A DNA stretch of 64,000 nucleotides from Callorhinchus milii (Eukaryota). The notes under the pieces were generated by a model. The model had not been told where the DNA came from and ran no database searches. It saw only the letters and a list, made by a program, of their open reading frames with translations. A program made the translations under genes and the position numbers. The stretch spans positions 38,380,001 through 38,444,000 of the forward strand of contig NW_024704742.1 in NCBI RefSeq assembly GCF_018977255.1. Direction: 5' to 3'. This document shows, in pieces, positions 37,101-40,100 of the stretch (positions within the stretch are counted from its first letter, which is position 1; every line of letters starts with the position of its first letter).

Positions 37101-40100
37101 TCTCATGATCGTCTCATGATATATAGAAGTTTTCTATACATCCTGCAGGTTACACAATGATTAAAATTTGGTCACATTGTTTTGAGTTATCCTTTTTATA
37201 AAGGAGAAGACTACTTGTCCTGCAAATATGAGTGTTTCCTGCCTTCACATAGCAGCGTGTGATTTATCGAGTGGGAATTAAATTGTCTTTAAACTGATCT
37301 GTACTCTTCTTGTAATTAGGAAGAGGGCCACTCTGAGTGGGTATCTTGTGTTCGCTTTTCACCAAACAACAGCAACCCAATCATTGTTTCCTGTGGCTGG
37401 GACAAGATGGTGAAGGTAAGAATGCAGCACATACACTTGTTCTTGGCTCAACTTATTCTGTAGTGCGTTACCTAGCTTGTCCAGCGTGTCACTCCTTAGG
37501 CAGAGTGGATTAATTCCTTTCCTTTATTTTCTCTTCACAGCTGTGCCTTGAGATAACAAATCTCAGTTTTTTGCCTTTAAGAATGGTCTGGCCGCACACT
37601 TTTAAGCTGGATCGTCCTCATTTCTACAATTGTGCGGTGTTTCGCAGGCTTGAGAATATGGGAGTAAATGGGATTTTAGTTTAAAGGTGCGTGTTCTGGC
37701 CGTTCTTAAAGGTGAGTGCTTTGCTTGCCTTTTTCCCCCTCTTTCTGTTTAGTATTGACTCACTTAGATGTATTAAGCATGAGCCAGACTGCACATGTCC
37801 AATGATTAAAACTTTCATTGCTGTTCACATAATGATTTGCTGTGATTATTGACTTATACAAATGAGGACATATGGTCAAATATGAATCGTACCAATATGC
37901 TGTCTGACTTTGTGTTTGATACTTTTGTGATTTAAGCCATTGATCACTGATTCAATCGTGTTCACAATGTGTGTAAAGGTTAGCCTACATTTTTTTAAAT
38001 GTGGGGATTTTGAAGATCATGCTATGTTAAACCTTTTTGTTGAACGTTATTGGTGGATATATCTGATTACACCGAACCCTCTCTGGGGGTGTGGAGAAAA
38101 GTCTGAGACACCCAAAGGATTGCTCTTTAAAAGAGCCAGCATAGTCAATGGGCTGAATGGCCACTTTCTGTGCTGTAAATTTCTATGCTTCTGTTTTTTA
38201 TTGAAGATTTTTTCTATCCTTTAAATTGTCTGTAGGTTTGGAATCTTACAAACTGCAAGCTGAAGACCAATCACATTGGGCACGTTGGTTACCTCAATGC
38301 TGTGACTGTCTCCCCTGATGGATCTCTCTGCGCCTCAGGTGGGAAGGTATGTCCTGCTGCTGTGGCCTTGAGACCACTTTTCTCACTCGGATCTGATCTG
38401 TCAGCATATTCTGCCCTTTTATTCTGTTTACCAGCTAAATATGTAACATTTGGTAAGTTCTACAATGTTGTGAGGGTCCCAAGATTGTGGGAGGGTGTGT
38501 TGCAGAAGTAACAATCTCTGCGGGGCCGAAGAGGCTGTTTTATTGTTGCTTAGATCAATTATTGAAAAGCCTATGTAAGTGGATGGGGCCCATAGTGTGT
38601 CATGTTTTCTGAATTGAAAGTGACAACCTGACTACTTGGGTACTTTATAACCCCAGACCAGTAAAACATCGTTTTCAGGCCCTGTTTTAATATAACTACA
38701 ACAATCTACATTTATGTAGCGTATTTCACATTGGGAGGATGTTTGGAGTCCTGTGGCTCAGTGGTTAGAGCACTCGCTTTGCAAGTGAGAGACCTGAGTT
38801 CAATTCCAGGCAGAGGGTGAAACCTCGGGCAAATTTCCTTACTCCACACTCCTAATAATCCCTCCAAAAAACAATAATAATAAATTGGTCATTTTCAATC
38901 CATGACTGTTTGTGGGACATTGCTGTGCACAATTGGCTGCCGCATTCGCCCACAAATATACAGTCAATTCACTTTACAGTATATTCTGTGAAGCGCTTTG
39001 GGATGTCTAGAAGACGTGAAAAGCGCTATATCAAATGCAAGGATTATTATTATGTTTCTAAGGGCTTTATACAGTTGACTAGAAGCCTGAGTTTGAGAAA
39101 GTGGAATCTTGTGTAGTGATTAACTTCTAACTTTGTATTTTCTATTTAGGATGGTCAGGCTATGCTGTGGGACCTGAATGAAGGAAAGCACTTGTACACT
39201 CTTGATGGTGGGGATGTCATCAATTCTCTGTGCTTCAGCCCCAACAGATACTGGCTGTGTGCTGCAACAGGTCCCAGCATCAAGATCTGGGTAAGAATTC
39301 CATGCATGCGGATATACATGGGTTGAGTTCTGAAAACACTTGTGCAAGTGAGCAGGGAGTTCACTGATCTTACTATGGAATATGTTAGCTGTGATGAAAC
39401 TCCTTCATATGCCTTTTCTGAGATGTACATGCGGAAACTTCAGAGGCTGTTTCTGAGCTAATTGGAAATTCTGAAATGATTGGGGAGGGGGGCTGATGTA
39501 CTTTTATTGCAGATTTTTACTCTGGTTATATGCAATTGCTGCACAAGTAAAATTGCCTTGCTTAATGTGAAAGTGGTATCTTCAGGAAGCGAGTGGCAAT
39601 AGGGTCCTTAAATTGTCGTGCTGAAACCACTGCCAGGCTTGTAAAAGTAAATCCCCTGTGGATCTGATTAAATACCTAATTAACCTTCAAGCGGCATTCC
39701 AATTTATAGTTATTTTTCTTGGTAACTGATCATAATTAAGTTTTAATTATATCAAAAATGTTTGTTCATATTCTAAAATTCAGCATAATCCAGCATTGCT
39801 TCTGCTGTTCTCGGTTTCCTATCTTTTAATCTTTTAGTTGTATATCTGTTATATCGTATTGAGTATCGTACAGATTTGTAGTTTGGAACTGTTATATCCC
39901 ATTACAAATTCTGTAGGCCTCCTCCCTAAAGCTGACTTATCTTTGCCTACACCCTTGACTCCAGGACCACTGCTGTTCTGACAGAATGTCTGTCAGACAT
40001 CAAGTCCTGGATGAGAGTTAACTTTCTTCAGTTGAACGTCAACAAGACCGAGGCTCTGCTGATTGGCTCCTGCCAGCGCCTCCTCACCTCAGGCGCTGAC

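Follow-up and report, generated by a model that had tools for sequence, protein, structure and literature searches.

A predicted SNORD143/144-family box C/D snoRNA in an intron of RACK1 in Callorhinchus milii

We identified a 77-nt element, read from the sequence as a box C/D snoRNA, at 37795..37871 on the + strand, inside an intron of the RACK1 gene of Callorhinchus milii. This element is very probably the species' single gene for a predicted box C/D snoRNA of the SNORD143/144 family. The family itself is already known, and what is new is a predicted member with RACK1 as its host. All positions refer to the window, which is the whole stretch of 64,000 nucleotides that was analyzed. The predicted parts of the element are as follows.

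37795..37871, + strand: whole predicted box C/D snoRNA, SNORD143/144 family, from its layout and 52/54 core identity to human SNORD143
37795..37800, + strand: terminal stem, 5' half ATGTCC, pairing with 37866-37871
37802..37808, + strand: box C variant AUGAUUA, preceded by A; position 6 is U, not G
37817..37830, + strand: D' guide, with a 12-nt 28S-complementary core at 37819-37830 and two extra pairs with rDNA type A
37832..37835, + strand: box D' AUGA, the same in human and zebrafish
37842..37848, + strand: box C' GUGAUUA, 6 nt past D'
37849..37861, + strand: spacer or second guide region upstream of box D, without an rRNA target and different from that of human SNORD143
37862..37865, + strand: box D variant AUGA; position 1 is A, not C
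37866..37871, + strand: terminal stem, 3' half GGACAT, pairing with 37795-37800

Read in order, the element consists of ATGTCC, A and ATGATTA, a 10-nt spacer, the guide core TGCTGTTCACAT (37819-37830), a single A, ATGA, TTTGCT, GTGATTA, 13 nt, ATGA and GGACAT. The distances between consecutive boxes, 23 nt (C-D'), 6 nt (D'-C') and 13 nt (C'-D), would be workable for a snoRNA of this class. The general features of box C/D snoRNAs, namely RUGAUGA near the 5' end, CUGA near the 3' end and a terminal stem, were found with one deviation in each box. The minimum-energy fold retained the 6-bp terminal stem and added a weak outer stem, GACUG/UGGUC. At -1.03, the z-score of the fold does not stand out, which is normal for C/D snoRNAs. 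The limits given in the earlier note, 37795..37871, coincide exactly with the stem-to-stem bounds.

We compared the element by eye, without an alignment program, with human SNORD143 and SNORD144, whose sequences and boxes were taken from the supplement of 'An updated human snoRNAome' (PMC4914119), and with zebrafish SNORD143 from supplement files 4 and 5 of PMC7668251. The comparison covered 54 positions in fixed segments: the stem halves, the A and box C, the guide, the base before D', box D', a 5-nt linker, the T and box C', and box D. Over these segments, the element was identical to human SNORD143 at 52/54 positions, to human SNORD144 at 47/54 and to zebrafish SNORD143 at 47/53. The guide TGCTGTTCACAT at D' was identical (12/12) in all four sequences, which also have the 6-nt D'-C' spacing in common. 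The element carries the box set of the family, with (A/G)UGAUUA as C, AUGA as D', GUGAUU(A/U) as C' and AUGA as D, and its similarity extends beyond the boxes and guide to the stem, the linker and the spacing.

Among the three, human SNORD143 (ZL5) is closest in its parts, having the same stem (ATGTCC/GGACAT), the A and box C AUGAUUA, the guide, D' AUGA, C' GUGAUUA, D AUGA, the D'-C' distance of 6 nt and a target, 28S Um2415(2402), addressed via D'. The two mismatches are the base between the guide and D', which is C in human SNORD143 and A in the element, and one base of the linker. The two spacers agree in neither length nor sequence: box C and the guide are separated by 12 nt in human SNORD143 and by 10 nt in the element, and the regions upstream of D, 10 nt and 13 nt, are unrelated. 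The overall lengths are 76 nt and 77 nt, respectively. Human SNORD144 (ZL6) has the guide, the boxes and the use of D' in common with the element, has an equal core length of 77 nt, and also shares with it the A before D', TTGA after C' and AA before D. In contrast, box C of SNORD144 is GUGAUUA instead of AUGAUUA, its terminal stem has a compensated A-U at the third pair where the element has G-C, and four of the five positions of the D'-C' linker are unlike those of the element. Zebrafish SNORD143 matches the element in the guide, D' AUGA, D AUGA and the stem TGTCC/GGACA, but has GUGAUUA as C and GUGAUUU as C', is 72 nt long and contains unrelated spacers.

The earlier note had proposed a comparison with human SNORD143 and SNORD144, and the outcome was positive: the element agrees in its variant boxes, its 12-nt guide, the box that it uses (D') and its terminal stem, ATGTCC/GGACAT. 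In contrast to these published sequences, the Rfam models gave little: Rfam release 15 yielded no snoRNA match at the gathering score in the whole window, and the sole match on the element was sn1502 at 18.4 bits (E 9.8), below the gathering score. No SNORD143 family was present among the Rfam matches, and the 2016 GFF gives RFAM:NA.

In the K-turn, position 6 of box C lies opposite position 1 of box D, within stem II. With U in box C and A in box D, the usual G-C pair of stem II becomes a U-A pair, and thus the fold would be kept; in C'/D', G-C is likewise replaced by U-A. Since the variant boxes are conserved in all four sequences, the variant probably indicates function. The preservation of this odd box set (C AUGAUUA, D AUGA) across this animal, zebrafish and human argues for a selected variant K-turn and not for decay.

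To analyze the target in the species' own rRNA, four 28S rDNA copies were fetched from the same genome using the Rfam LSU model. The reverse complement of the guide, ATGTGAACAGCA, was present in 4/4 of these copies. Thus, a guide of at least 10 nt complementary to the species' own rRNA lies 5' of the D' box, set off from it by the single A. The guide-28S duplex comprises 14 bp, including one G-U, with 28S type A and 12 bp with type B. A37827, the fifth base upstream of box D', lies opposite the U of AUG-U-GAAC; numbered from the 28S start that Rfam defines, this U is at position 1879 in type A and 1875 in type B. The pairing of the 12-nt D' guide with 28S and the placement of A37827 by the D'+5 rule, both noted earlier from the letters of the window, are borne out by these rDNA copies. 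For the region 37849-37861, which could hold a second guide, no complementarity of at least 8 nt was found to the species' own 18S, 5.8S/ITS or 28S.

Two observations underlie the predicted equivalence of the target U to human Um2415 (2402): human SNORD143/144 have the identical guide, and the zebrafish row LSU_2402 is labelled in human numbering. In the target table of PMC4914119, column 1 denotes the D guide and column 2 the D' guide, which we checked with the rows of SNORD95 and SNORD96A. The human 28S-2402 target stands in column 2, and therefore human SNORD143/144 use D', like the element. The zebrafish entries of PMC7668251 catalogue LSU_2402 with SNORD143 as a D' guide. Passages of PMC5597630 list Um2415 (2402) with SNORD143 and SNORD144, and passages of PMC5027482 list U2402 with ZL5/6, which are SNORD143/144. 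Passages of PMC8393311 and PMC11773364 also assign SNORD143/144 to Um2415(2402), the level of which varies between conditions and, in human, reportedly changes with cell state. The assignment of Um2415 to SNORD143/144, which the earlier note had given, agrees with what these four papers (PMC5597630, PMC5027482, PMC8393311 and PMC11773364) state in those passages.

We then examined the number of such elements in the genome. The assembly searched comprises 991 Mb, and genome-wide coverage was obtained with sequence patterns. In the window, 84 rows on the + strand and 64 rows on the - strand, counting both rDNA types, had rRNA complementarity of at least 10 bp directly 5' of NTGA. Such matches are common, and thus the guide alone is not significant. 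The 12-mer of the guide followed by NNTGA occurred at nine places in the genome, and examination of 9/9 revealed that the other eight have no C box, C' box, D box or terminal stem. The pattern of C box, guide and D' had a single match in 991 Mb. Part of the guide followed by D' and C' gave three matches; two of them, in which a guide part of 10 nt is followed by canonical CTGA and TGATGA, were rejected as they have no C box or terminal stem. When the guide, D', the fixed 6-nt linker and C' were searched with up to three mismatches, the window copy was found at 0 mismatches, and three other matches, all at three mismatches, compared with five in the reversed control. A looser pattern of TGATKA and guide was found at 19 places versus 2 in the control, and D' was also present only in the window copy. 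Other guide-like candidates from the window scan in introns 1, 2 and 7 of RACK1 have no C box or stem and were rejected.

A covariance model of the element (R1) was run over the window and the fetched loci. Its self-match scored 115.5 bits, and nothing else in the pattern-match loci was better than E 0.2. By the genome-wide patterns, no second member of the SNORD143/144 family was found in the 991-Mb assembly, and the absence of a copy from the SEC31A and ZMYM2 genes of this genome was likewise judged from these patterns. As the element is the sole copy found there, a species that keeps the site methylated would depend on it. Judged from these counts, it is the whole predicted architecture, and not the guide match, that exceeds chance.

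The host was determined from protein matches and RNA contigs, which define the following features.

37320..37415, + strand: RACK1 exon 4 (phmmer against PDB, RACK1 residues 144-175, E ~1e-20; RNA joints)
37416..38235, + strand: RACK1 intron 4, the host intron, 820 nt (GT..AG joint 37415|38236 in RNA contigs)
38236..38346, + strand: RACK1 exon 5 (phmmer against PDB, RACK1 residues 176-212, E ~5e-23; RNA joints)

In runs X1, X3 and X5, which come from two studies, RNA contigs span the joints 36982|37320, 37415|38236 and 38346|39150, all at GT..AG. These joints indicate that the runs contain spliced RNA and that intron 4 spans 37416-38235. The remaining exons of RACK1 are visible among the open reading frames listed for the window. 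The RACK1 host named in the earlier note is thus confirmed by the match of exons 4 and 5 to RACK1 in PDB and by the splice from 37415 to 38236. The same gene also carries SNORD96-like and SNORD95-like snoRNAs, the latter at 39386-39460.

Within intron 4, the predicted snoRNA has the sense orientation; the 5' splice site is 379 nt away and the 3' splice site 364 nt. Mammalian intronic C/D snoRNAs usually lie approximately 70-90 nt from the 3' splice site, and the distance of 364 nt is farther than this. A repeat with very high contig depth is located between the snoRNA and the 3' splice site (bin 38114-38214) and may have pushed the two apart.

The RNA over the element consisted of low-depth intron or pre-mRNA contigs running well past it, such as record 2 of X1 (37539-38263) and the records of X3 (37698-37866 and 37886-38083). 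No discrete RNA of approximately 77 nt was seen in the RNA contigs of runs X1, X3 and X5, which are apparently ordinary RNA-seq. The low-depth intron contigs are neutral and say nothing about snoRNA processing. Separately, a contig of run X10 (organism B) covers 37308-38181, differing at 78 letters and by 10 gaps; this contig holds 3 of the 16 sampled 31-mers of 37740-37920.

One alternative is that the element is a silent relic, that is, a copy of SNORD143 that was relocated or retroposed and no longer gives rise to a stable snoRNP. It would fit the RNA contigs, in which the mature RNA was not seen, the long distance of 364 nt to the 3' splice site and the non-canonical boxes. However, all functional parts are intact and match human (52/54 of the core and 12/12 of the guide), whereas divergence is seen in the non-functional spacers, as expected under purifying selection. 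In the expressed human and zebrafish RNAs, these non-canonical boxes are the normal ones of the family, and the element is the sole copy found in the genome. We therefore regard a relic as improbable.

The second alternative concerns the SNORD96-like snoRNAs of RACK1. One lies in intron 3, which adjoins the intron of the element, and another in intron 7 of a second RACK1 gene on contig 13. Exon 5 of this second gene encodes a protein sequence 92% identical to that of the first, with 22/111 bases different, and a minor RNA contig agreed with the second gene at 10/10 of the differences listed. In approximately 21 kb around the second RACK1 gene, no SNORD143-like element was found. The U-A box variant is common to the element and to both SNORD96-like snoRNAs. 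The element and the intron-3 SNORD96-like snoRNA share the variant boxes and a 12-nt block at the C box, and the 10-mer TTCACATAAT is common to the element and the SNORD96-like snoRNA of the second RACK1 gene.

For each pair, the global alignment score was compared with those of 2000 shuffles. The element gave z 3.4 against the SNORD96-like snoRNA of the second gene (12/2000 shuffles reached the score) and z 3.5 against that of intron 3 (9/2000), values that overstate the similarity because the shuffles do not preserve the shared boxes. The two SNORD96-like snoRNAs gave z 7.2 against each other (0/2000), and each of the three gave z 0.4 to 1.4 against a SNORD95-like control (228, 467 and 711 of 2000). 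Model R1 scored 13.6 bits (E 1.7) on the intron-3 SNORD96-like snoRNA, which is at background level. We also compared the rRNA targets: 5.8S AUGUGAAUUGCA, next to the SNORD96 target, and 28S AUGUGAACAGCA, the SNORD143 target, agree at 10/12 positions. Convergence on these look-alike targets could account for part of the similarity of the guides. SNORD96 resembles the element in having RACK1 as its host in human and zebrafish, and in the U-A variant, which in this species and zebrafish takes the form of C AUGAUUA or GUGAUUU with D AUGA. The two differ in that SNORD96 guides 5.8S Gm75 via its D box and the element would guide 28S via D', and outside the boxes the similarity is weak.

On these data, the element might be a functional guide for the same U that is not orthologous to SNORD143, having arisen from the neighbouring SNORD96-like snoRNA with a guide that converged. 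The shared variant boxes and 12-nt C-box block of the adjacent intron, the 10-mer TTCACATAAT and the alignment scores that only 9 to 12 of 2000 shuffles reach speak for such an origin. Against it, the identity to SNORD143 covers parts that are not dictated by the target, namely the stem, the spacing, the linker TTTG and the T preceding C', model R1 does not rise above background on the SNORD96-like snoRNA, and the alignment scores are inflated by the shared boxes. An independent origin is accordingly very unlikely. A chance resemblance, in which an AT-rich stretch of intron happens to contain box-like words and a 28S-complementary 12-mer, draws on the frequency of 10-12 bp complementarities beside NTGA in the window and on the nine genomic places of the 12-mer with NNTGA, but is refuted by the 52/54 core identity to a published snoRNA, which cannot be accidental, and by the full pattern being unique in the genome while the eight other places have no C, C' or D box or stem, so that its probability is negligible.

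The SNORD143 family might have originated in RACK1, from a SNORD96-type snoRNA that was copied into an adjacent intron of the gene; we consider this unlikely, although less so than the alternatives above. The rare U-A variant of the C/D K-turn carried by both kinds of snoRNA, their location in adjacent introns of this genome, the common C-box block and TTCACATAAT, and the agreement of the two rRNA targets at 10/12 positions would fit such an origin. The duplicated guide region could have been captured by the look-alike 28S site. If this is true, zmym2 in zebrafish and SEC31A in mammals would be hosts to which SNORD143 moved later.

For the element as a SNORD143/144-family snoRNA, we infer the following steps from the established biology of intronic box C/D snoRNAs. 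The element would be transcribed within the RACK1 pre-mRNA. After splicing, intron 4 would be debranched, and exonucleases would trim it to the terminal stem, releasing the snoRNA. The C/D and C'/D' motifs would recruit SNU13, NOP58, NOP56 and fibrillarin, and the 12-14 nt guide 5' of D' would base-pair with 28S rRNA. Fibrillarin would then methylate the 2'-OH of the U opposite A37827, the predicted equivalent of human Um2415 (Um2402).

A shared host gene is not defining for a snoRNA family but bears on orthology. The host and synteny of the human locus are not shared by the element, which lies in RACK1 intron 4, whereas human SNORD143 and SNORD144 both lie in intron 3 of SEC31A, a protein-coding gene, according to passages of PMC11773364, and zebrafish SNORD143 lies in an intron of zmym2 according to the entries of PMC7668251. 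The link drawn in the earlier note to a human non-coding locus does not hold, as the human host SEC31A is protein-coding. The hosts in the three species are thus three different genes: RACK1, SEC31A and zmym2. In our literature search, no paper was found that joins the snoRNA, a host gene, RACK1 and SEC31A, and the zebrafish snoRNAome paper contained no SNORD143, sec31a or zmym2 in the parts of its main text and supplement searched.

With this analysis, one conserved 28S methylation site receives a predicted guide in this genome, a predicted snoRNA missed by Rfam-based annotation. The result would be unsurprising to a snoRNA specialist and is of modest weight overall; the RNA itself is ordinary, and it is the host that differs from those in human and zebrafish. 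The mobility of snoRNAs is a published theme (PMC3511168 and PMC1687206). With the same predicted snoRNA in three protein-coding hosts in three vertebrate lineages, the element would provide a clean case of snoRNA host turnover.

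Two further box C/D snoRNAs were located in introns of the RACK1 gene, each on its boxes and on a D guide matched to the rRNA of C. milii.

37152-37235, + strand, SNORD96-like box C/D snoRNA in intron 3
39386-39460, + strand, SNORD95-like snoRNA in intron 6

The SNORD95-like snoRNA has canonical boxes, and its D guide forms 13 bp, including one G-U pair, with C. milii 28S at A2280/2284. The snoRNA shares its guide core with human and zebrafish SNORD95, and chicken U95 is reported to be hosted by GNB2L1 intron 6. The Rfam model RF00189 scored 25 bits (E 0.059) on this snoRNA, versus a gathering score of 55.

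The SNORD96-like snoRNA is closed by an ACAC/GTGT terminal stem, carries box C AATGATTA and box D ATGA, and ends 84 nt upstream of the 3′ splice site. Its D guide TGTCCTGCAA pairs with C. milii 5.8S, targeting the G within AAUUGCAGG that corresponds to the human Gm75 site. Rfam did not identify this snoRNA, and the sole match there was snoR28 (E 5.9).

The C. milii assembly contains two clearly distinct rDNA types, represented by the 28S loci L002/L003 and L004/L005. The 28S gene measures 3925 nt in one type and 3975 nt in the other; an alignment of the two has 511 mismatches and 208 gap columns, and identity across aligned positions is 86.7%. The types differ in their 5.8S too, and the 18S copies of the assembly fall into two score groups. 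By analogy, this arrangement is reminiscent of zebrafish, which has maternal and somatic rRNA types, while the two types may also reflect contamination or pseudogene arrays.

Six Rfam tRNA matches in the 64-kb window belong to a tRNA-derived SINE family.

14863-14935, SINE copy
31489-31560, SINE copy
36148-36210, − strand, SINE copy
38745-39053, SINE copy in RACK1 intron 5
41574-41643, SINE copy
44282-44352, − strand, SINE copy

In both RNA and DNA runs, from C. milii and from a relative, contig depth over the intron 5 copy was very large, at 1e5 to 1e7; thus, this SINE is very high-copy and also transcribed. Long open frames resembling reverse-transcriptase/LINE remnants lie on both strands at 39800-43900, filling RACK1 intron 6 and the region downstream of the gene. 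These remnants lengthen the introns and distance the snoRNAs from the splice sites.

A second RACK1 gene, also with introns, was found elsewhere in the assembly.

Contig 13, approximately 1,050,000-1,055,000 (loci L038 and L039), − strand, second RACK1 gene
L039 7487-7566, − strand, SNORD96-like snoRNA in intron 7 of this gene

By our count, it differs from the RACK1 of the window at 15 of 165 residues across exons 3-6, and at 22 of 111 bases in exon 5. The second gene is transcribed, as a minor RNA contig matches it. Its SNORD96-like snoRNA occupies intron 7, whereas that of the window RACK1 occupies intron 3.

In the supplementary rows of PMC4914119, human SNORD96A has canonical GUGAUGA/CUGA boxes, whereas zebrafish SNORD96, in those of PMC7668251, shares with C. 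milii the U-A variant. The difference amounts to a compensatory K-turn change between orthologs. In this variant, U at position 6 of box C and A at position 1 of box D replace the usual G-C pair of K-turn stem II.
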